From a virus (taxonomy: Duplodnaviria > Heunggongvirae > Uroviricota > Caudoviricetes): a stretch of DNA of 34,933 nucleotides. The stretch covers positions 1 to 34,933 of IMG/VR virus record IMGVR_UViG_2778261280_000009; one strand, written 5' to 3'. This document shows, one piece after another, positions 3,154 to 33,529 of the stretch. A program made the position numbers and the translations under genes. Each line of letters opens with the position of its first letter. Positions within the stretch are counted from its first letter, which is position 1. The notes below the pieces were generated by a model. The model was given only the letters and a program-made list of their open reading frames with translations. It made no database searches and was not told the DNA's origin.

Positions 3154-3551
3154 GCAGAAACAGGCTCTGCGGGCCCGGCGTCCTCTGTCTGTTCAGGGGC
3201 ATTATTCACAACAAACTCATACATACCAGACAGCCGGTACACCACGTTTTCAGCATGAGAAATTGCCTCTGTAGGCCAGGTGGTAAGCACTTCCTGCTCA
3301 ATCTGTTTAACGGCTTCATTCATGGACGGCATCTGCGTCTTCTGCGGATGGTTATGCCACAGGGACATCGCCACCAGAAACGCGCCGGTTCTGATGGCGT
3401 CTTCCACAGTAAACTTCCGGTTGCTGTCTGACTCCGCCTGTTCTGCCTGCCGTTTCATCAGGGCGAGATGCTCAATACGCTGCAGGGCTGACAGTTCAGA
3501 AAGCGTGACGGTCACGCCGTTATGTTCAAATGATTCGGTTTTCAGGAACAT
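3129..3551 (-). CDS. G: Tail assembly chaperone gpG
   Basis: 140-aa ORF immediately upstream of H; C-terminus ...PVSAGKCSTVS contains the G GGA AAG slippery heptamer. Confidence 0.85.
   Translation of the reverse strand: MFLKTESFEHNGVTVTLSELSALQRIEHLALMKRQAEQAESDSNRKFTVEDAIRTGAFLVAMSLWHNHPQKTQMPSMNEAVKQIEQEVLTTWPTEAISHAENVVYRLSGMYEFVVNNAPEQTEDAGPAEPVSAGKCSTVS
3147..3153 (-). other. Programmed -1 ribosomal frameshift slippery heptamer GGGAAAG (G to G-T)
   Basis: Minus-strand GCG GGA AAG lies 6 codons before the G stop; the -1 frame continues into the T ORF. Confidence 0.8.
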
Positions 3552-3566
3552 CGCTGACTCTCCGGA

Positions 3567-4307
3567 TTAACTGTCGGTGACAGTGATTTCTGCAACCGCA
3601 GCAAGTTCACCATTACCGGATACAACCGGAATGTTGACCTTACCTGCAGCAACGCCTTTCACGGTGATGGTCATACCACTGACCGACACGGTGGCTTTTG
3701 TTTTATCCGCTGACACCGCACGGAAGCTCTTGTCAGTTGCGCCCTCCGGCTGGAATGCCACGGTCAGCGTGGTGCTCTGCCCTTTCACCACCGAGGAGCT
3801 GGCAGGCGTCACAGTCATACCGGTTGCCGCCGTCACCGTACTGCGATCTTCTGCCATTGACGGACGGCCCACATTGGTGACCTTCACCGTACGGGTGATC
3901 ACTTCCTTCGCCGTCACCGCCTTACCGATACTGCTGACCCAGCCACGGAACACATCGACCGTGCCGTTCGGGAAGCGGATTTTATAGGCACGGGTATCAC
4001 CTTCATTAAACCACGCCAGCAGCGCCTGCTGCCCCTGCTCTCCGGGCATCCACGCCAGCGTGAAGCTGGTATCTCCGGCGGATTTCTGCCCCTGCCCGGT
4101 CGCGGTCCAGTCCGCATCTTCATCATCGAGATAACTGTCGTCATAGGACTCAGCGGTCAGTTCGCCGGGCGTCAGGTCTTTAACTTTAGCCAGACGCGAC
4201 CAGTCAACGTCTGAAAGCGGGTTCGCATAAGGGTCGCCGCTCCCGTTATAAACCCACAGGGTGGTCCCGGCACCTTTCACCGGTATTGCTGGATTTGGTA
4301 CAGGCAT
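3567..4307 (-). CDS. V: Major tail tube protein gpV
   Basis: Start trimmed to [16 protein letters not shown] (246 aa), near-identical to lambda gpV as recalled, including the C-terminal Ig-like region; the track ORF is extended upstream. Confidence 0.9.
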
Positions 4308-4314
4308 ATCGTCC

Positions 4315-4710
4315 TCACATTTCATAGGTAATGACATAAGTCAGATCGGCAGAACTCCACAGGCCCGCATCATCGTCGCGCCGGTAGTCATAGCCACTGG
4401 CCACCATACTGGTGAGCAAATCTGACAGTGCCGGGATATCGCTCATCACCGGATAAATCCGGGACTCCATCCACGAATCCAGCTCTGAATCCGGTACCTG
4501 AGCAGGCAGGAAAACTTCGATATGCAGCTCCGCCTGCCAGGTATCGCTGTCCAGCTCTTCGCCCGTGTATTCAGCGCCGGTGAGATAAACGGCAACTGCC
4601 GGAAAATCCGCCTCATCAAAAACAGCGGGGCGACCATCAAAAAACGTCGCCCCGGTGTCATGCTTCTCCAGTGCATCCAGTACGGCTGCACGGAGTTCAG
4701 TATGTTTCAT
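4315..4710 (-). CDS. U: Tail terminator protein gpU
   Basis: 131 aa, [18 protein letters not shown]..., matching lambda gpU in length, sequence and position. Confidence 0.85.
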
Positions 4711-17681: not shown

Positions 17682-18434
17682 TTATCTCGTCACCTTTCTC
17701 AATTGTGCTTCAGCGAATGCTTCTTCCTGCCAGCACTTTGTTACCAGTTTATCAATGACGTCTGCATATCCTTTGTACCACTGATAATCAGTCAGGTCTG
17801 GTACCAGCTTCTGGACATGACGTCGTGCCAGTGTGGTCGGTAAACGACTAAACCGGTTTCCATTGCAACGCCCACAAATCTTATAAACAGGCGCGCCATG
17901 AAGCCGGGTTCTTTTTTCATCCAGGACAATGCCTTTACCCTTACACCCTCTGCAAGCCGTGCTGACTTCTCCCTTACCATGGCAATGCTGACATAATTCC
18001 TTCACCCACTCTTCCTTGATAACAGATTCCCCGCTTCTGGAGTGTTTCACCACTTCGCGCAATACACTATGAAATCCAGTACCAGCACAATGCTCACAGC
18101 GAGCCTTACTTGCCGCAGACCTGGAATAATCAGCAAAGGCAAAACTCACAAGGTAAGGGATGATCTGTAACCGGGTTTCTTCACTCAATTTGTTCAATGT
18201 CGGGTTATCCATTGCCATCGCGTAATTGAGCAGACCTTCAATCGCAAACTGAGGATCCTGAACACCAACTTTTGCCAGGAATAAGGCAAACCCAAGCGGT
18301 GCTTTCGACTGCACCATCCCCTGCGCAGCCATCACATCCGTAATCGTTAAACCACCTGAGCCTGTCGCCGGTGCGTCATCGCTCAATTTTGGAGATTTTG
18401 GGGAGTAATATTTTGGTAAGGCTTCAAGGTTCAT
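17682..18434 (-). CDS. Late-gene antiterminator Q (Qin-prophage QuuQ/YdfT-like)
   Basis: 250 aa with several CxxC zinc-binding motifs (CEHCAGTG, CQHCHGKG, CRGCKGKG, CGRCNG); sits immediately upstream of the late promoter/lysis region. Confidence 0.65.
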   Translation of the reverse strand: MNLEALPKYYSPKSPKLSDDAPATGSGGLTITDVMAAQGMVQSKAPLGFALFLAKVGVQDPQFAIEGLLNYAMAMDNPTLNKLSEETRLQIIPYLVSFAFADYSRSAASKARCEHCAGTGFHSVLREVVKHSRSGESVIKEEWVKELCQHCHGKGEVSTACRGCKGKGIVLDEKRTRLHGAPVYKICGRCNGNRFSRLPTTLARRHVQKLVPDLTDYQWYKGYADVIDKLVTKCWQEEAFAEAQLRKVTR

Positions 18435-22969: not shown

Positions 22970-23202
22970 GCTGCACCTCCGAGATGCTTCATGTTTTTTC
23001 CGGAGCGAAAGGTTATAAGCGGCATACTGACGCGGTAATTACGGCCCAGCGGTTCACAAATCACCTTCTGACATTCACGGTCAACCAGGCTAACACGTAG
23101 AACATGCCCTGCAGGCGTGGTGTACCACTGCCCAACTGTAGGAATTGATGTTTTTTTACGCTGAAATAAACGGTAAATGTTGAGGATCAACGGATTAAGC
23201 AT
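22966..23202 (-). CDS. Hypothetical protein (78 aa)
   Basis: ORF overlapping both neighbours in the early operon; no family recognised. Confidence 0.3.
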   Translation of the reverse strand: MLNPLILNIYRLFQRKKTSIPTVGQWYTTPAGHVLRVSLVDRECQKVICEPLGRNYRVSMPLITFRSGKNMKHLGGAA

Positions 23203-24031
23203 GACGATGCCCTCCGCTGATATTCAGGAGACGGTGAATATGAAAATTAGCCTTATCCGCCAGACGAATACGTTCAGCCTGCAAGTTAAGAAGGGTTTCT
23301 ACCAGAACCTGATGCGCCTGCGGATCCGAAAGAGTTACCTTGCGCAGAGCACGTAGTGCAGTTGTTACATAACTGAGTTTATGTAAGTCTTCATCATTCA
23401 GACGAGTGAGGGCTGGGACAGTAGCCATGATGGCAGCCTCCGTATGCAATGGATAACTTCCACCACCGGAAACGCCAATTTCGCTGGTGGTGAACTGAGC
23501 AGGGTTGGCGTAACCGGCGCATACGGAAACCGGCGCACCTTTCGGTGCCCCCACCCAGCCCACCATAATTTGGGTATAGCTGAGTTGTAGCAACAAAAAA
23601 GACGCTAACGCGCCAATTGTCGCCGTATGCAATTCCAGGACGCCAATCCCGGCACCCGCTTTATAAGGTGCCTGAACAGTGTAACGTCCCGGAATGGCAG
23701 AATCAATGTGCTGGTGGTCCTTCACACTCAACAAAATCACGCCTGAATTTCCACAAAGGACTAAAGCACTCATGCGGGTAGTCTTTGCGAAGATAGATAA
23801 CGCGCTGTGTTTCTGGCTCCCAACGAATAACATGGACATAAAGCCCTCTTCCGTCACGAAACCAGCGGTTAAGTTCCTGCACAACTCGCCCCCCACAGTC
23901 AGGTAAAGTTCTCTGTGGTTACTTACAGCCAGGTGATTTGGTAATCTGCATTCATGCCGTAACAACAGGTGTTCAGCGACACTGACCACCAGCTGTTGCG
24001 ACAAACGGTTATTTGCCGTTAAACTGTTCAT
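23195..24031 (-). CDS. Hypothetical phage early protein (278 aa)
   Basis: Long ORF in operon context between the CII-like and O-like genes; no family recognised. Confidence 0.4.
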   Translation of the reverse strand: MNSLTANNRLSQQLVVSVAEHLLLRHECRLPNHLAVSNHRELYLTVGGELCRNLTAGFVTEEGFMSMLFVGSQKHSALSIFAKTTRMSALVLCGNSGVILLSVKDHQHIDSAIPGRYTVQAPYKAGAGIGVLELHTATIGALASFLLLQLSYTQIMVGWVGAPKGAPVSVCAGYANPAQFTTSEIGVSGGGSYPLHTEAAIMATVPALTRLNDEDLHKLSYVTTALRALRKVTLSDPQAHQVLVETLLNLQAERIRLADKANFHIHRLLNISGGHRHA

Positions 24032-24591
24032 GCGTTAGTTTCTCCACAGACACAAAACGCCACGACGCCCGGAGCTGCACACTCGCGGGCGTCACTCTTT
24101 TCTGGAGCGCAAAAGATTTTGTAGACCAGTGCTGCATGCTCCTGGAGCTTCGAAATTGACAGATACAACTCATCATTAATTGCTGTCTGCTCGTGTGGCT
24201 CCACTACCCCATCTTCGATTGCCGAACGAATCTGCTTTGAGTAACTCCCGATCTGTTCGATGACTTCCAGCAGGCGCTGGTTTATATCGGCGTTCTCTAC
24301 TTCCTCAATTTCAGGAAGCGATACAAACACCCCACCAGCAGACTGTGCGACAGCATCCGCAATGTAGTGAGTGCCAGCCGCGCGCTGTAAAATCATTGCC
24401 CATCCCAGCGGGAAAATCTGATCGCCATCTGCACGAAGGCGGTTGAATAAAGCGTTCTCTGTTACATCCAGCCACTCAGCAGCTTCAGCGTAACCCCCCG
24501 GCAACGCCGCGATAGTTTTTCTGACAGCTTTCACGTACCACTCAGGCTGTTTTTCTACTTTCCAGTGATGCTTACCCACGGTTAGCCTCAT
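24028..24591 (-). CDS. Putative CII-like lysogeny regulator (position-based)
   Basis: 187-aa ORF immediately downstream of cro; assignment rests on position and size typical of CP76-type CII proteins. Confidence 0.35.
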   Translation of the reverse strand: MRLTVGKHHWKVEKQPEWYVKAVRKTIAALPGGYAEAAEWLDVTENALFNRLRADGDQIFPLGWAMILQRAAGTHYIADAVAQSAGGVFVSLPEIEEVENADINQRLLEVIEQIGSYSKQIRSAIEDGVVEPHEQTAINDELYLSISKLQEHAALVYKIFCAPEKSDARECAAPGVVAFCVCGETNA

Positions 24592-24622
24592 CGTTCTGTG
24601 GTTAAAAATTGAAGGTGTTCTG

Positions 24623-24823
24623 TTAATCTTTCGGATAGATATCCGGTCTTAAGTCAGATTTCGTAATTGCACCTGACGTGCATTGCTCAAGTTTTTTAGC
24701 CAGCACAAAACTGGCTTTTTTATAACCATTGAAAACCAGCCGTAAGTAGCCTGGTGTTGAGCCAACTTTTCCGGCCAACTCGCCCTGCTGTTCTTTGGTT
24801 AAAGAGTCCCAATACGCTTTCAT
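24623..24823 (-). CDS. cro: Cro-like repressor
   Basis: Start trimmed to MKAYWDSLTKEQ (66 aa) with a GGAGGT Shine-Dalgarno; divergent from the cI-like gene across a 90-bp operator region. Confidence 0.6.
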   Translation of the reverse strand: MKAYWDSLTKEQQGELAGKVGSTPGYLRLVFNGYKKASFVLAKKLEQCTSGAITKSDLRPDIYPKD

Positions 24824-24878
24824 ACAATATGTACCTCCAATATACATATTACATGATTGAGATGAACCTTCAAGATAC

Positions 24879-24897
24879 TTGTACCCTATCGGTACAA
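24879..24897. promoter_or_regulatory. Operator candidate, palindrome TTGTACC-N5-GGTACAA, in the cro/cI intergenic region
   Basis: Perfect 7-bp inverted repeat with a 5-bp spacer; overlaps a candidate PRM -35 (TTGTAC) whose -10 (TTTAAT) would place the start at the cI ATG. Confidence 0.45.
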
Positions 24898-24913
24898 AGG
24901 TTTTAATTTCGTT

Positions 24914-25588
24914 ATGAAAACAGTCCATGACATCCGGCGGTCTAACGCCAGAAAACTGAGAGATGGTGTTGGCGGGAATTCTTCCTTTGCCACCATGATT
25001 GATCGCGAGCCAACCCAGACCAGCAGGTTTATGGGAGATGGTGCTACTAAAAATATCGGTGACAGCATGGCACGGCACATCGAAAAATGTTTCGACCTGC
25101 CTGTCGGATGGCTTGATCAAGAACACCAGACAACAAACATCACAAAAAAACCTGATGTTTCAATTACTAACAAACAAATAACGTTAGTCCCCGTCATATC
25201 ATGGGTACAGGCCGGAGCATGGAAAGAAGTTGGCTATTCTGAGGTTGATTTGAGCACAGCAGAAACTTATCCCTGCCCTGTACCCTGTGGCGAAATGACT
25301 TATATCTTGCGGGTGATTGGTGATTCAATGATTGATGAGTACCGCCCGGGAGACATGATTTTTGTAGATCCTGAAGTCCCTGCCTGCCACGGTGACGACG
25401 TTATTGCATTGATGCACGATTCAGGCGAAACCACCTTCAAGCGGTTGATAGAAGATGGAACACAGCGTTATCTCAAAGCATTAAACCCAAACTGGCCTGA
25501 GCCTTACATTAAGATTAACGGTAATTGCTCTATAATTGGTACAGTGATTTTCTCTGGAAAACCAAGAAGATACACAATAAAGGCCTAA
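24914..25588 (+). CDS. cI: CI-type prophage repressor (S24 LexA-like autopeptidase domain)
   Basis: 224 aa; C-terminal domain with GDSM catalytic Ser and downstream Lys; C-terminus ...LNPNWPEPYIKINGNCSIIGTV resembles P22 C2. Confidence 0.8.
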   Translation: MKTVHDIRRSNARKLRDGVGGNSSFATMIDREPTQTSRFMGDGATKNIGDSMARHIEKCFDLPVGWLDQEHQTTNITKKPDVSITNKQITLVPVISWVQAGAWKEVGYSEVDLSTAETYPCPVPCGEMTYILRVIGDSMIDEYRPGDMIFVDPEVPACHGDDVIALMHDSGETTFKRLIEDGTQRYLKALNPNWPEPYIKINGNCSIIGTVIFSGKPRRYTIKA

Positions 25589-25600
25589 TCAATATTTATG

Positions 25601-25623
25601 AACCTGCTTCGGCAGGTTTTTTT
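25601..25623 (+). terminator. Rho-independent terminator downstream of cI
   Basis: AACCTGC-TTCG-GCAGGTT followed by a T run, 13 nt after the cI stop. Confidence 0.7.
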
Positions 25624-25627
25624 ATGC

Positions 25628-25655
25628 TTGACAATGTACCCATGAGATACATAAT
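25628..25655 (+). promoter_or_regulatory. Candidate PL-type early promoter (-35 TTGACA, 16-bp spacer, -10 CATAAT) with overlapping operator-like palindrome
   Basis: Consensus -35 and 5/6 -10; the palindrome AGATACAT-a-ATGTATCT (25645..25661) overlaps the -10; a TGTACC half-site sits in the spacer. Confidence 0.5.
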
Positions 25656-26256
25656 GTATCTAAAAGAAACATAACACAGGCAAGATTAAAACAAAATTTG
25701 GTTGTAACACGGCGTATGGCACATGCGTCGTTAGCGGTCTGGTGACGTTAAAGGGGACAATCCACTCCTTGCTCGGGCAAACAAACCAGGTAGCCGGAAT
25801 GTGCAAGTCAATGATGATGCTGATAAGACGCCTAACCAGCGTGGCGATTCGGTTTGACGCCTGGGAAGAGACCAGGGTGCAACGATGAGGGCATTTATGG
25901 AACCGCGACAAAGTGTGGTGCCGTAACTGGCTAAGTGCTCTCAGCGTTGTGGTAATCCGCGAAATGGCGCGGCGGTAAGTATGGCGGGGTTACTCTTTCC
26001 CCGTTGAGGACACCGGATTGTCAGGTTGACCATACGCCTGAGTGACAACCCCACCACAACAGCCACTGCTTTGGCGGTACCAGTTTGTACACTTGCTTCC
26101 GGCTGGTACCGCTCTTTTTACAAAACAGAGAAGAGCATCACCGGACGACGGGCTCATAACCCAATCCATCCGGGCGGCTGCCACCGCAGGTGTTCTTCTC
26201 TGTTTTGTGGAGAAACCAACCGACCTTACAGGGTCGATATGATGAGGAGCAGCAAA

Positions 26257-26619
26257 ATGGCTAGCGAACGCAGTACTGATGTGCAGGCATTTATCGGGGA
26301 GCTGGACGGCGGCGTATTTGAAACCAAAATCGGCGCTGTTCTCAGTGAAGTCGCTTCCGGTGTGATGAACACGAAAACCAAAGGTAAGGTCTCGCTCAAC
26401 CTGGAAATCGAACCGTTTGATGAGAACCGTGTGAAAATCAAACACAAACTCTCATATGTTCGCCCGACTAACCGCGGGAAAATTTCCGAAGAAGACACCA
26501 CCGAAACGCCGATGTATGTCAATCGCGGTGGTCGCCTGACTATTCTGCAGGAAGACCAGGGACAATTACTGACTCTTGCCGGTGAACCTGACGGAAAACT
26601 CCGCGCAGCAGGTCGTTAA
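26257..26619 (+). CDS. Hypothetical protein, YfdP-like (120 aa)
   Basis: Start at MASERSTD preceded by GAGGAG (an in-frame ATG at 26239 is also possible); first ORF of the rightward early operon. Confidence 0.5.
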   Translation: MASERSTDVQAFIGELDGGVFETKIGAVLSEVASGVMNTKTKGKVSLNLEIEPFDENRVKIKHKLSYVRPTNRGKISEEDTTETPMYVNRGGRLTILQEDQGQLLTLAGEPDGKLRAAGR

Positions 26620-26684
26620 TATCGTTCTTAATTAACCGATTATTTATCTCATCACTGAATATCTTTATATAGTGAGGACTTATT

Positions 26685-27509
26685 ATGTCTCAGAACTTAG
26701 ACGCAACCGCAATTAATCAAATCCATGCCCTTATTTCTGCTCAGGGTGTTAATGAAATTATCAGTAAGATTGGTGCCGATGCTGTGGCATTGCCTGAGAA
26801 TTTCCGCATTCATGATCTGGAAAAATTTAATTTAAATCGCTTCCGTTTCCGTGGTGCGCTTTCCACTGCCAGCATCGATGACTTTACCCGTTATTCTAAA
26901 GATCTTGCAGATGAAGGCACCCGCTGCTTTATCGATGCTGATAATATGCGTGCCGTCAGTGTGCTTAACCTGGGTACTATTGATGAACCAGGTCACGCAG
27001 ATAACACCGCCACTCTCAAACTGAAAAAGACAGCACCGTTCTCTGCCCTGTTGTCTGTTAACGGCGAGCGTAACTCCCAGAAGTCACTGGCAGAATGGAT
27101 TGAAGACTGGGCCGACTACCTTGTGGGCTTTGATGCTAATGGTGACGCTATTCAGGCAACAAAAGCGGCTGCGGCAGTCCGTAAAATCACGATTGAAGCA
27201 AACCAGACCGCTGATTTTGAAGATAATGACTTCAGCGGCAAACGCTCCCTGATGGAGTCTGTCGAAGCGAAGACCAAAGACATTATGCCAGTGGCATTTG
27301 AATTTAAATGCGTTCCGTTTGAAGGCCTTAAAGAACGTCCGTTTAAATTACGCCTCAGCATTATCACTGGCGATCGTCCTGTACTGGTTCTGCGCATTAT
27401 TCAGCTGGAAGCGGTGCAGGAAGAAATGGCTAACGAATTTCGTGATCTGCTTGTTGAGAAATTTAAAGACAGCAAAGTAGAAACCTTTATTGGTACTTTC
27501 ACCGCCTGA
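26685..27509 (+). CDS. Hypothetical protein, YfdQ-like (274 aa)
   Basis: 274-aa ORF with good spacing and Shine-Dalgarno; size and position match YfdQ of the CPS-53 prophage from recollection. Confidence 0.55.
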
Positions 27510-29701: not shown

Positions 29702-32700
29702 TCACACGCTGCGCCTTCGAGAATATTCATTTAATCGCTGATAACGAACATCTTGCTCCAGTTGTGGAGCAGCTTGAACAATTTGAAGCAAGCATTGCCC
29801 CAACTCTCGAGGCCCCCAGTGTTGGTCGGCAATCACGGCATTCAGCAGGGATAGAGCGTCCGCAGGATATCGGCTGCAAATATCTGATTTTAGCAAAAGG
29901 CGAACGTCGTAGCTAAGGTGTTCGAGCGGTTGCAGCCAGTCCTGCACCACTGCCAAAGCCGCCGGAAATTCACCTCGGGCAGCAATCACCATACGAGTCA
30001 ACGATTCGGATATGCGTGGGGTGGCCAAGTTGCGGGACTTTGGCCAAACCTGTTGCCAAAATGGCTGGACACGATTTTTCCAATACTCCTCGCGCTGATC
30101 GCCCGCACCTTCAAGTGCCTGGTATAACGCCTGCGCGGCTACCTCCAGACCTTCTTGTGGAAGAGCACTAATTGCCGTTCGGAACTCCTCCACGGTATAT
30201 CCCTCGGTAGGGCCCAGAGCTGCATAAGTCAGGAAAGTAGCGAATTGCTGCCGGTGCTCGCCAAGATCAGAATAGTGATTGGCGCTCTCCAAAAAATCTG
30301 ACTTGAAAGCTATCAGCAACGGTTCATACAGGCGTGGCGACCAGAGGAAGCCTTCCCACACAGCTTTTGCTTCGACGGGATTACTCCAAGCAAACAAGGG
30401 CAATAGATACTGTTCGGTCCAAGGTCGATCTACGCGAAAAAATGCGATCAGCCGCGACCCCAGCAACACCCGACCATGGCGGAATAGCTCTATCTGTACA
30501 TTACACAATTTGGTGAAAAGTGTTTTCAATTCAACAGGAAGCAAATCATTGTCATTCGGGTTCTGTTTGAACCATAGGGTGATCAGTGATTGCGTGACAT
30601 GCCCAATGGGATGATTGATCGCCGTAGAAACAGGATCATAGGTCTCAATTCCGTTTCGAATGGTGCTAGACTCTGGGCTTGTTTCTATCATCAGAACCCG
30701 ACGACAAAGGGCCAGTAGAATCTCCTCGTGGCAGAGGATGGACTTCGAAGCCTCCTCCATCCACCAAGTGACAGCGTGGGAAATCTCCTGAAGTACTGCG
30801 TCAGGCATGTCAAGCACCAACGGTGCGGCGTACCGCCACGAACGCAAAATCATCCCTGGTTCAGCCCAAGTCTGCAGAGCTTCACGCCACCGACCAACAG
30901 GCCACACATCATCTTGTGATAGTTTACGTAACGCATACAGACTGTGAAAAAAGCGCGTACGGCAAACATCACTCCAAGTGTCCTCATAGAAAGGCAGTCT
31001 TTCTGGCATAGGCTTTGCGAGCCATTGCACTAATTCCTGCCACTTACGGGGCGCAATGTCGACATCTATACTCTCCTCGAAGCCTGGATCACCGGTTCCG
31101 CTCATCCAGTGAGAGAATTCATCACGCTCGTTGGTTGCCAGTTGCCATTTTGGGTATGCTGTGGATATTTCCGTCAAACGTGTAGCCGCAGACTCTCCCA
31201 AAACAAGGCCCGCTCCCCTGAGCTTCGCTAGACACAACCAGACAGAATGAGCCACCAAATAATGCCACCTGTCTGCTTCCAAATTATCCTCGTACATCTC
31301 GCGCGGAGGCCCTGCCAAGATAGCAGTTTCCAGACGCTCTTGTGCAATTCCTGTCAGATGTCGTCCCTGCAAAACAAATAGTCTGAATACCTCTCGCCCA
31401 GTATCCGTGGCCCACAACCACCATGAACCGTCCTCTAACAACCAATTAACCCACCGCTCAGGTGGTATGCAGTTGTCTTGGCTTGCGGCAAACAGTGCCA
31501 GACGTTTGAAGGTGGGATATGGCAACTCAAACCAATTCTGAGCAATGCGCGTGGCCTGATCGCTGTCTTTGGCTCGAACGGCTAACCATGAATCCCGAAG
31601 TAATTCAATCAGGCTCACCCAATCGCGGAACCCCCGGTTCTGCCAGTGCGGAGTGATGGACGGCAAATCCCAATGCGAGCGGTCGTGACGATCGTCGGAC
31701 TCTCCCAACTCCCGCAACAAGTCCAGTGCATCACGCAACAACTGCTGAAAATCTTCCAACAGGTATGGCAAGGACGATTTCCATGACTCGTCAGCAAGGT
31801 CGAACAGGGTTGAACGTACGTAATCAGCAGTCAGCACCAGCTCCCAATCCACCAATTGCTTGATTCGCAAGGGCTCATCAGTGCTGCTCGAATCGTCTTC
31901 ACTATAGCGAAACGGCCGCCTCAACATAACCTTGGGAGAAAGCAACTCGCGTAACTCCAAGCGCAATGTAGTCGTCAAGCCTTCATTCTTTAAGCGGTTT
32001 TGCCAACGATACAAATCCAGGTTCTGCAATGGCGATTTCACACGACCACTAAGCAGAAGCCGCCATAAAGTAGACATAGGTGGACCAGGAATAGCCAGGG
32101 GGGAATGCAAGAGAATTTCATCTAACTCAGAAGTCTTACGCTCCCGCATCAGTGCTGCTAAGCGATCTAGTTCGCTCTCAATCAGAAACATCCAACGGTC
32201 GTGTATTTGTCCGCCGCGTTCAGCAATCCATATGATCAACCTAGGGTCGCCCAGATAACGAACTAGCCAACGGGCTATATGGGACATTACGTCATCCCAT
32301 TTGCTAGCACTGACACATCCAGAAACCAGCGACATCTGCGGGGCTAGCTCATAGGACGCAGGACGCTGAACCAGGCTGAATCGGAGTTTCGGGTCAATTT
32401 CGACATGCGGAGATACACAAAAGCGTGGCAGATCGCTGTATTTAAATCGTTCGTCCGAGAAAGCTTTCAATAACCAATCCAGCGGCGGTGCAGGATTGAG
32501 TTCCGCAAAACATTTTGCTGGTAAACCTGACTTATCAGATAAGGCCCACATCATCCGACCAACGAAATCGTCCTGCCGAGTACTATCCTGCGGGCGGGCC
32601 AGAGCATGTTTGACGACAATGGCTTCTTTGCCTTGTATACCATCGCGATAAATATTTGCCCAAGCGCACAATGTATGGTGCATCGCTGAATGATCATTGG

Positions 32701-33529
32701 AGTCCGCCGGTACGGTGTAAAGGATGGGGGTGACCCCCTTGGCCTCCCACTCGATAGATTTCCGGTGCTCCTGCCCCGGCTCACATTCTCCTAGTGCCCA
32801 TACTTGCGGCGTGACTTCACCGAGCCTCCGATCTGCTGCCAGTGCGTCCATCATATAGCGTAGCACCGGGTCGTTGATGCTGTAGCCCACGAAGCAGACT
32901 ACGTAGTTACGGAACAAGTCACTTACAAAACGGGCTGCCCAGCGTTCCGTGAGATAGGCTAAGCCAAAGTCTCCACTAGTGACAACCAGACGATTCAGAG
33001 CAGTATCGTCTGTCTTTTCCGGTAACAACCCATGCAGGTAGACTATTCCGTCCCAGCGACTATTTTTCGGAATTGGCAGCATCGGCGCTACATAAGCCTG
33101 AAACGCTTGGGCCGTGCGTTTAGCTGCCACATGAAATAAGCGGTCAAAGTTGGTAGTAACTAACCGAAGGGCACCATCGCGACTACGCGCCAAACGCAAC
33201 AGCGCCATCTGAGTATCAGTTGCGCCTCTATAGTGAAGTTTTGGCTTAAGGGCTTGTTCCAGCGCGCGACGGACGGCTATACGCTGTCCCGGTAGGCGCC
33301 GTTCCAACAAATCCAATGTGGCGTCGAACTGACCGCGCTTGAAGGCCTCACACTCAATTTCTGAAAGTGTTGTTCCGTTCAACTGGTAAATCCGCTTTAC
33401 CAATCCCTTGAAACCTGGCAAACCAGCAGGGTAGGAAATGCCTGCCCCGCAGAAGAACACCACGCGGCCTTCCTCGTGCGCCTGCAAAAGTTCATCCGGA
33501 ATATCAGGGCCGTTGGTGATAAATTGCAT
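29702..33529 (-). CDS. Large SIR2-like domain protein (1275 aa), candidate defence-associated sirtuin-type NADase
   Basis: AGGAGG Shine-Dalgarno 8 nt upstream of the ATG; N-terminal VVFFCGAGISYPAGLP, TTNFD (N127) and YLHG (H166) fit the SIR2-like fold; about 1000 aa of Trp/Leu-rich helical sequence with no Walker A motif. Confidence 0.7.
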   Translation of the reverse strand: MQFITNGPDIPDELLQAHEEGRVVFFCGAGISYPAGLPGFKGLVKRIYQLNGTTLSEIECEAFKRGQFDATLDLLERRLPGQRIAVRRALEQALKPKLHYRGATDTQMALLRLARSRDGALRLVTTNFDRLFHVAAKRTAQAFQAYVAPMLPIPKNSRWDGIVYLHGLLPEKTDDTALNRLVVTSGDFGLAYLTERWAARFVSDLFRNYVVCFVGYSINDPVLRYMMDALAADRRLGEVTPQVWALGECEPGQEHRKSIEWEAKGVTPILYTVPADSNDHSAMHHTLCAWANIYRDGIQGKEAIVVKHALARPQDSTRQDDFVGRMMWALSDKSGLPAKCFAELNPAPPLDWLLKAFSDERFKYSDLPRFCVSPHVEIDPKLRFSLVQRPASYELAPQMSLVSGCVSASKWDDVMSHIARWLVRYLGDPRLIIWIAERGGQIHDRWMFLIESELDRLAALMRERKTSELDEILLHSPLAIPGPPMSTLWRLLLSGRVKSPLQNLDLYRWQNRLKNEGLTTTLRLELRELLSPKVMLRRPFRYSEDDSSSTDEPLRIKQLVDWELVLTADYVRSTLFDLADESWKSSLPYLLEDFQQLLRDALDLLRELGESDDRHDRSHWDLPSITPHWQNRGFRDWVSLIELLRDSWLAVRAKDSDQATRIAQNWFELPYPTFKRLALFAASQDNCIPPERWVNWLLEDGSWWLWATDTGREVFRLFVLQGRHLTGIAQERLETAILAGPPREMYEDNLEADRWHYLVAHSVWLCLAKLRGAGLVLGESAATRLTEISTAYPKWQLATNERDEFSHWMSGTGDPGFEESIDVDIAPRKWQELVQWLAKPMPERLPFYEDTWSDVCRTRFFHSLYALRKLSQDDVWPVGRWREALQTWAEPGMILRSWRYAAPLVLDMPDAVLQEISHAVTWWMEEASKSILCHEEILLALCRRVLMIETSPESSTIRNGIETYDPVSTAINHPIGHVTQSLITLWFKQNPNDNDLLPVELKTLFTKLCNVQIELFRHGRVLLGSRLIAFFRVDRPWTEQYLLPLFAWSNPVEAKAVWEGFLWSPRLYEPLLIAFKSDFLESANHYSDLGEHRQQFATFLTYAALGPTEGYTVEEFRTAISALPQEGLEVAAQALYQALEGAGDQREEYWKNRVQPFWQQVWPKSRNLATPRISESLTRMVIAARGEFPAALAVVQDWLQPLEHLSYDVRLLLKSDICSRYPADALSLLNAVIADQHWGPRELGQCLLQIVQAAPQLEQDVRYQRLNEYSRRRSV

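Follow-up and report, generated by a model that had tools for sequence, protein, structure and literature searches.

The window analysed here, the whole 34,933-nucleotide (nt) stretch of IMG/VR virus record IMGVR_UViG_2778261280_000009 (positions 1 to 34,933), is an SfV/e14-like lambdoid prophage in which a leader of about 600 nt (25624-26256) separates the repressor gene cI from the gene yfdP. Here, we describe this leader by promoter and terminator scans, RNA folding, covariance models and comparison with related prophages, and find that it is non-coding and carries three RNA modules, termed A, B and D, with covarying folds, and between B and D a terminator hairpin of the type found at the dicF locus of the K-12 Qin prophage. 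The cI gene (24914-25588, plus strand) is of the LexA/Peptidase_S24 type, its product matching Pfam Peptidase_S24, and a cro-like gene and a CII/YmfL gene lie divergently from it on the minus strand. A Q-type late antiterminator is encoded at 17682-18434 (minus strand), the integrase forms the right end of the window, and neither the list of open reading frames (ORFs) nor Pfam revealed an N-like protein anywhere in the window, in keeping with the first-pass annotation, which had seen no N-like Arg-rich ORF. On the 3′ side of the leader follow yfdP (120 amino acids, aa), yfdQ (DUF2303), yfdR (HD hydrolase) and two DUF551 genes. The first-pass annotation had taken this for the start of the rightward early operon; it is an early operon, and since its genes are co-directional with cI it corresponds to the pL (early-left) operon of lambda.

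The cI gene is closed by an intrinsic terminator (25600-25626, plus strand), identified in the terminator scan as a hairpin at 25600-25619 with an 8-base-pair (bp) stem and a 4-nt loop, followed by a T-run. Right behind it stands the near-consensus promoter that had been proposed from the sequence, a pL-type sigma-70 promoter (25628-25655, plus strand) with TTGACA at 25628-25633, a 16-nt spacer and CATAAT at 25650-25655. With 11 of 12 consensus matches it is the top promoter-like site within 24500-26800, it would start transcription at about 25662-25663, and no other promoter-like site lies between it and yfdP. The 8-1-8 palindrome reported to overlap it, AGATACAT-A-ATGTATCT, occupies exactly 25645-25661, and with up to three mismatches allowed the window contains no second match (chance expectation 0.05). 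It forms the junction of two abutting 20-bp repeats of the form ATGTAYC-N6-GATACAT (25634-25653 and 25654-25673), and since two further copies of this repeat lie between cI and cro (24829-24848 and 24862-24881), the repeats appear as operator-like sites. The four copies are likely the operators of this immunity type, and as a repeat family they support the view that the promoter would be under repressor control. The predicted transcript opens with an A-rich 5′ tail (25663-25706, plus strand; 52% A).

The leader that follows is long, highly structured and untranslated, as had been supposed. The minimum free energy of its 594 nt is -228.5 kcal/mol against -191.8 ± 5.9 kcal/mol in shuffled sequences (z = -6.24), and none of 100 shuffles folds as well. 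The first ATG with a Shine-Dalgarno sequence is that of yfdP at 26257, and RefSeq carries no annotation under the leader. Candidate ORFs of 48, 83, 66 and 41 aa, together with an upstream extension of yfdP, were checked in homologues, and none is conserved: the candidates are interrupted by 1-2-nt indels and show no third-position bias, where yfdP itself has mostly third-position changes, and the 83-aa ORF has no Pfam match. A protein-coding leader is therefore ruled out by frameshifting indels and flat codon-position substitution counts. The yfdP frame is open for 77 codons upstream of its ATG (26026-26619, TTG start, 197 aa), and some phage records set the yfdP start at 26239; in this extension coding conservation was not found: Citrobacter has an indel of 1 nt, and the three codon positions are substituted about equally often.

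None of the Rfam 15 families, among them riboswitches, GOLLD, ROOL, C4 and STnc RNAs, matched within 25624-26256 at the gathering threshold or at E ≤ 10, sub-threshold chance matches falling mostly on the cI terminator, and on nine related loci only DicF and tRNAs were matched. A, B and D are RNA modules without an Rfam 15 family, with the plus strand as the RNA strand, as fixed by G-U pairs; no description of them was found in the literature searched, a search that left older work on the dicF flank outside its range. The leader is 98-99.8% identical to that of Stx2c-converting phages and of phages Ayreon, cdtI and 2H10, and beyond these it is a mosaic: matches to 25696-25872 occur in P1-like plasmids and phiV10-type phages, those to 25946-26068 in the K-12 Qin prophage, and those to 26071-26256 in thousands of prophages. 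From about 25690 onward it is also common to phages with other cI genes and operators, which makes the leader a unit independent of immunity type. At least one leader piece is present in 4,767 of 5,426 complete E. coli genomes, and nearly the whole leader in about 1,100.

The core of module A (25707-25882, plus strand) consists of a long irregular hairpin, a pseudoknotted hairpin P6 and a hairpin P7 with the loop GAAGAGA. Its structure was derived with RNAalifold from 32 diverse sequences of about 12 enterobacterial genera, and the pseudoknot was added by hand. The helices of the long hairpin are GGC/GYC, GCACAU/AUGUGC, YCG/CGG, GC/GC and UCYG/CRGG, its apex is variable and its internal loops are invariant; in the pseudoknot, the P6 loop MACC pairs with a downstream GGUK in 100% of cases, with five C-G to A-U switches. 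Altogether 98.4% of cells are paired, as against 25-41% when the partners are slid, and 72 cells are compensatory as against 20 in shuffles, a value that none of 500 shuffles attains. The check by folding and covariance across related prophages that the first-pass annotation had called for thus brings out compensatory base changes in A, as it does in B and D below. The covariance model of A finds one copy in the window (150.6 bits, E = 3e-40) and no match in HK022, SfV, ST64B or Qin. Base composition was considered as a sign of Rho evasion and set aside as uninformative, module A having more G than C.

A scan for A homologues by exact 17-mer, with one genome per species, returned 54 matches, 23 of them true homologues; the remainder are chance matches in unrelated phyla (about 70 expected) and were excluded by requiring flanking motifs. 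The homologues lie in Kosakonia, Escherichia whittamii, an Escherichia sp., Phytobacter, Superficieibacter, Citrobacter, Kluyvera, Klebsiella, Candidatus Erwinia dacicola, Pseudescherichia, Pseudocitrobacter, Enterobacter and Buttiauxella, and in one contig from a metagenome bin that carries the label Bacillota. The order of elements is the same in 20 of the 23 instances: the A core is followed, 155-195 nt further on, by a closing-stem domain (GUUGUGG) or a tRNA (tRNA-Arg), then by one or more intrinsic terminators and an ORF. At many loci the A core begins 10-45 nt downstream of promoters or operators. A co-directional cI-like gene, with a product only 24-40% identical to the window cI, precedes A in at least nine of 20 further A-core loci, an arrangement seen in mEp390 as well, where A follows the repressor gene; yfdP-yfdQ follow the core in three of these loci, with yfdR in two. 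In phage P1, A comes directly after trnI and before ban, and in phiV10, O157 typing phage 9, SPN1S and a Klebsiella phage its immediate 3′ neighbour is a tRNA-Arg gene. In Superficieibacter electus (locus L245, about 4197-4358, minus strand), the end of a B′-like domain (see below), terminating in GGAGATCAGCGCCGGCCACCACAAC, directly precedes the A core, with a GUUGUGG closing-stem domain after it; cassettes hence occur in differing orders.

Between A and B lies a stem with a variable insert (25887-25942, plus strand), GAGGGCAUU/AGUGCUCUC, read by eye from sequence listings, as was the change of GAGAGCA/UGCUCUC to AAGAGCA/UGCUCUU in other genera. The insert differs between phages, and in Stx2a_1447 (about 1700-1790) and SPN1S (about 1620-1700) it holds two T-loop-like hairpins, CUGG-UUCAAUU-CCAG and GUCCG-UUCGAUU-CGGAC, at which no tRNA was detected.

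Module B (25946-26060, plus strand) connects the leader with dicF. A closing helix, GUUGUGGU/ACCACAAC, surrounds H1, P2 (CGGU/ACCG), H2, H3 and a pseudoknot, GUAUGG/CCAUAC. Over 70 distinct sequences, 96.9% of positions are paired (31-56% when slid) and seven pairs covary, compared with 2.9 in shuffles (1/500); H2 varies freely in sequence and is always a stem with a CU-rich loop. B is homologous to the 5′ flank of dicF, with 89% identity over 123 nt to a Qin stretch that ends about 10 nt before DicF, and it corresponds to the "dicF-like region" of the P1 record annotation, just downstream of the C1-controlled Pban promoters. The linkage of B to a terminator is near-constant: among 88 non-identical instances, every one that is not cut by a contig end continues within 15-45 nt into a hypervariable segment that ends in a GC hairpin and a T-run. 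A rough count puts a terminator behind B in 143 of 144 non-truncated instances, although this automatic count stopped at the internal UUUU of DicF and the sequences themselves are the better evidence. At least nine variants of the segment occur behind B, canonical DicF being the commonest and the window type and the P1 type being among the others.

The slot that B fills is itself exchangeable. In Stx2k, PhiR63 and Stx2a_1447 phages a different domain, B′, stands where B would be, enclosed by the same closing helix and followed by the same terminator, and in SfV and ST64B the slot is occupied by an E-type domain, homologous to the Qin domain between DicF and dicB. With the same terminator behind B, B′ and E, these domains behave as exchangeable cassettes rather than as partners of a particular terminator. 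In Qin (L002), the conserved E-type domain with its own closing helix spans 3196-3345, from the DicF terminator to dicB, and this closing helix appears to coincide with the RNase III site already known 3′ of DicF.

Directly 3′ of B follows a segment of the dicF-locus type (26061-26119, plus strand), in which a linker of 13 nt leads into a hairpin with the tail UCUUUUU (26113-26119). The inverted repeat pointed out in the first-pass annotation belongs to this hairpin, with its arms GGTACCAG at 26076-26083 and CTGGTACC at 26103-26110 rather than at 26079 and 26113. It forms part of a 10-12-bp stem, GCGGUACCAG/CUGGUACCGC (26074-26112; 19-nt loop; -22.5 kcal/mol, z = -3.2), so that 26074-26119 has the GC-rich hairpin and U-tract of an intrinsic terminator, a shape that had not been flagged before. 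Its 19-nt loop explains why it is absent from a simple terminator scan, which allows loops of up to 8 nt, and suggests that the terminator is leaky. As no promoter-like site separates it from yfdP, yfdP needs read-through. The hairpin and DicF have UUUGGCGGUAYCAGUUU in common, and in its position directly 3′ of B, its GGCGG-type hairpin and its U-tail the segment agrees with dicF-locus cassettes in the wider sense. We regard 26061-26119 as a candidate Hfq-type small RNA. The idea of an independent non-coding RNA, raised earlier as an alternative, largely stands in this form, in that the leader ends in a hairpin and terminator of the dicF-locus type and its conserved RNA modules covary.

Module D (26119-26209, plus strand) begins in the terminator tail with a 20-bp helix that encloses a three-way junction (-47.3 kcal/mol, z = -8.0). 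In 19 sequences, including Kosakonia, Pseudescherichia, Citrobacter and Salmonella ST64B, 96.7% of positions are paired (44-49% when slid) and seven pairs covary, compared with 2.1 in shuffles (0/500). The 20-bp helix alone is 98.4% paired with four covarying pairs and has the length and near-perfect pairing (at least 20 bp) of an RNase III site, so by its shape D would be an RNase III substrate. The apical hairpin, CGGGCUCAUAACCC (26149-26162), is identical over 14 nt to positions 29-42 of the E. coli metZ initiator tRNA-fMet, that is, to three G-C pairs and the CUCAUAA anticodon loop, a length reached by none of 500 shuffles, and this tip is invariant while the surrounding helix covaries. 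D accompanies A in only three of 20 other A-core loci and is thus an optional cassette. The Qin prophage has a 13-bp helix, GAAUUUUGUGAUG/CAUCACAAAAUUC, in the position that D occupies in the window, immediately behind the DicF terminator, and it is in this region that RNase III generates the 72-nt DicF species (PMC5069750, PMC9438474). P1 (NC_005856) carries at 2245 and 2524 (plus strand) two copies of a D-like word, ACGGGKTCATATCCCAATC, with a hairpin resembling a CAU anticodon; both fall inside the annotated minus-strand plp and upl of the ban operon, and these small ORFs may overlap, or be, plus-strand RNA elements. Downstream of D, the yfdP start region (26221-26259, plus strand) comprises, by sequence, ORF list and fold, a small hairpin (26221-26236), the Shine-Dalgarno sequence GAGGAG (26244-26249) and the ATG at 26257, where RefSeq annotates yfdP.

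Taken together, the invariant loops, the constant positions of the modules, behind early promoters and adjoining small RNAs or tRNAs, and their persistence beside cI genes of only 24-40% identity show selection on the RNA itself.

What, then, does the leader do? Among its closest known counterparts is the Qin locus ydfABC-dicF-dicB-ydfD, likewise a repressor-controlled early-left operon in which B stands directly 5′ of a small RNA, a GGCGG-containing hairpin with a U-tail ends that small RNA, and a long helix lies between the terminator and the first downstream ORF. Qin gives a dual output of terminated small RNA and read-through mRNA (PMC5069750, PMC9438474), which for the window would apply by inference. 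The two loci differ in that the window hairpin has no DicF 5′ UUUCUGGUGACG arm and another loop sequence, that the window cassette stands behind a promoter and A whereas that of Qin stands behind three ORFs, and that the domain after the terminator is D in the window and of the E type in Qin. The P1 ban leader resembles the window in its C1-repressed promoter, in B with a terminator hairpin within about 35 nt, in an A core of 79% identity, in its D-like words, and in a long untranslated region beyond which distal genes need read-through. In P1, however, the modules are spread over 2.5 kb among three tRNA genes and tciABC, A follows trnI and has no 3′ stem, and B has no obvious closing helix.

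We therefore consider it probable that the leader is the non-coding pL-type early leader of an N-less SfV/e14-like prophage, equivalent to the dicF locus and built as a string of RNA cassettes. With transcription, the efficiency of termination, processing by RNase E and RNase III, Hfq dependence, targets in trans and any role of A and B all inferred from sequence and comparison, the following course would fit. Once the cI-like repressor leaves the two promoter operators, transcription would start at about 25662 and cross the A core, B and then the hairpin and terminator at 26074-26119. Part of the polymerases would stop there, yielding a non-coding RNA of about 457 nt whose 3′ end is a small-RNA module of the DicF family, and this module might be trimmed by RNase E as for DicF or be kept attached to B. 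The remainder would read through the probably leaky terminator into D, where the 20-bp helix would correspond in position to the site at which RNase III cuts 3′ of DicF, and cleavage at D would separate the RNA part from the yfdP-yfdQ-yfdR mRNA. DicF biogenesis is known to involve termination, RNase E and RNase III, and the targets of DicF have been described as well (PMC5069750, PMC9438474). The locus would accordingly be a counterpart of both ydfABC-dicF-dicB and the P1 Pban leader, delivering a regulatory RNA and an early mRNA from one promoter. As a working guess, A and B could be autonomous folding units that protect the early transcript over its long untranslated course and define where the adjoining small RNA or tRNA begins and ends.

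Several observations weigh against the equivalence with dicF. The Rfam DicF model (RF00039) finds no match in 25400-26500 at E ≤ 10, let alone at the gathering score of the family, where it gives 76.7 bits on Qin (L002:3133-3184), and the small RNA of the window is hence not a DicF orthologue. The linker is only 13 nt long and has none of the AU-rich RNase E site seen in DicF, and DicF-style trimming may be absent here. The slot from CGUU to the terminator is taken by B, B′ or E, which fits autonomous cassettes and leaves their purpose unexplained. The sequences aligned for B and D are closely related, and covariation is modest in consequence, at seven pairs each. Finally, the near-invariant internal loops of A across genera suggest a specific partner, and a scaffolding or protective role does not explain them.

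That last point also bears on a different function, in which nascent A and/or B would bind RNA polymerase, carry it through the terminator at 26119 and so replace N, as a put-like, factor-independent antiterminator in cis made of unrelated RNA. We consider this possible but rather unlikely. It would account for the position of the A core so close behind promoters and operators and ahead of one or two intrinsic terminators and then ORFs, for the dependence of the promoterless yfdPQR on read-through, for a window that has a Q-type late antiterminator and no N-like protein, and for the placement of B and a terminator between Pban and the distant ban in P1; invariant internal loops in about 12 genera would suit a conserved host partner such as RNA polymerase. 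A nut or put relationship in the strict sense, as the first-pass annotation had suggested, fails every homology test applied. What looks like a boxA, CGCTCTTTTTACAA, is nothing but the terminator tail and is unconserved in related loci. The leader has no conserved boxA or boxB and the window no Arg-rich N of the lambda kind; with the lambda nutL/N leader it shares its place between pL and the first gene and a long RNase III-type helix a short way ahead of the first ribosome-binding site. With the HK022 genome the leader shares only chance words by BLAST, and the covariance model of the A core is likewise negative there. HK022 putL and putR are also structured RNAs in the early leaders of an N-less lambdoid phage, upstream of terminators, but put is about 73 nt long and V-shaped, with two stem-loops and a triplex (PMC9378689), whereas A (about 176 nt) and B (about 115 nt) are both pseudoknotted and differ from it in architecture, and there is one copy per phage, not one per early operon, the early-right operon of this phage having no copy of A. 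Antitermination by A or B further fits poorly with P1, where a tRNA directly precedes A and the promoter is 2.3 kb away, with Qin, where B stands behind three ORFs, and with the identical terminator behind three different domains.

Of similarly low probability, in our view, is a broader proposal under which A, B and D would be uncatalogued functional classes of phage RNA, the A core, with or without B, acting as a put-unrelated modifier of RNA polymerase and D as a decoy of the initiator-tRNA anticodon arm. Were it true, A would give N-independent antitermination to SfV/e14-like phages, the P1 ban operon and Uetakevirus tRNA units, and the RNA-polymerase modifier and the tRNA mimic would each add a new mechanism based on RNA, one that most E. 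coli genomes carry. Large, ornate and modular RNAs of phages and prophages, often adjacent to or embedding tRNAs and with a conserved core and variable inserts, are familiar from GOLLD, ROOL and the stable RNAs of the T4 tRNA cluster. The leader may be likened to these as a large modular non-coding phage RNA with a conserved core and variable inserts; the resemblance would be one of kind only, given a length of about 460 nt, no Rfam match in the leader and modules that also occur singly.

The decoy idea can be taken on its own, and so stated we hold it to be improbable: released cassettes, above all D, would act in trans as relatives or mimics of tRNA and titrate a host or defence factor with affinity for parts of tRNA, for instance a VapC-type anticodon nuclease, MetRS, or the 30S P site and IF3. 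VapC of Shigella and Salmonella cleaves the anticodon loop of initiator tRNA, and the thrS operator mimics an anticodon arm. The 14-nt identity of D to tRNA-fMet, invariant across genera while the 20-bp helix covaries, is what chiefly speaks for such a role, together with the place of A directly 5′ of tRNA-Arg (phiV10, SPN1S and the Klebsiella phage) or directly 3′ of the CAU-anticodon trnI in P1, the T-loop-like hairpins in the Stx2a_1447 insert and the two D-like words of the P1 ban operon. All of this is resemblance, however; D is optional, and apart from the anticodon stem-loop in D there is nothing of a tRNA gene, ARAGORN finding no cloverleaf anywhere in the window and the Rfam tRNA model (RF00005) no match in 25400-26500 at E ≤ 10.

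Two further readings we judge very improbable and, like the decoy, less likely than a put-like function. A riboswitch-like attenuator, in which A or B is a ligand- or factor-sensing aptamer that tunes termination at 26119, would suit two pseudoknotted, aptamer-sized domains with invariant loops in a 5′ leader upstream of an intrinsic terminator, but no conserved alternative pairing joins domain and terminator, the linker varies greatly, any of B, B′ and E can stand before an identical terminator, A also precedes tRNA genes and ban, and the downstream genes share no metabolic theme. A decayed, functionless array of phage tRNAs and small RNAs, conserved through recent shared ancestry and recombination, would explain the mosaic distribution, the tRNA neighbours and the tRNA-like fragments, but not the compensatory changes that keep helices across genera, loops that stay invariant where flanks fall to 75-80% identity, or an architecture retained beside cI genes of only 24-40% identity.

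The small RNAs known from related prophages map elsewhere. AgvB and AsxR lie at the PR′ moron site in the late region (PMC4104026), the Pas small RNAs in the late region (bioRxiv 10.64898/2026.05.13.724894) and HnrS at late genes (bioRxiv 10.1101/2025.11.27.690950), and identity with any of them was rejected on these grounds. The supplements of Tree 2014 contain neither the hairpin sequence nor DicF nor yfdP. The small RNA svsR, which is co293-like and limits infection by other phages, was reported for the SfV-like prophage NC-SV of E. coli NC101, where it lies at the 3′ end of cI (PMC12803456). Its reported position corresponds to about 25545-25626 in the window, the 3′ end of cI and its terminator, adjoining the leader and outside it, and by this position identity with svsR was rejected as well; Rfam matches to STnc50 and STnc370 on the minus strand at about 25545-25626 are weak, sub-threshold and resemble matches to generic terminators.

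Two other regions of the window deserve mention. On the minus strand at 23483-23671, Rfam places a C4 antisense RNA (80.7 bits) directly next to isrK (61.2 bits), the pair being contained in a 278-aa ORF (23195-24031), called "immunity region" in the annotation of phage Ayreon, whose Pfam Phage_ASH match (residues 117-210) covers exactly the span of C4 and isrK, and this ORF, perhaps Pfam Phage_ASH itself, may represent non-coding RNA genes in translated form. Between the early-left genes and the integrase, 29702-33529 (minus strand) encodes a 1275-aa protein with an N-terminal SIR2_2 domain, of a size and position typical of an anti-phage defence gene carried by a prophage (DSR2-like).

In conclusion, the classic small RNA DicF proves to be the variable 3′ part of a larger cassette that is conserved, in which a pseudoknotted 5′ domain is joined to an exchangeable seed and terminator, and this provides a concrete model for the production of small RNAs by prophages and for the swapping of their seeds. 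Early-terminator read-through in N-less lambdoid phages becomes testable at this locus, and the copy of the initiator-tRNA anticodon arm in D offers a ready hypothesis for molecular mimicry. Module A, about 176 nt long, pseudoknotted and present in about 12 genera behind early promoters or beside phage tRNAs, including those of the long-studied model phage P1, is a good candidate for a new RNA function.

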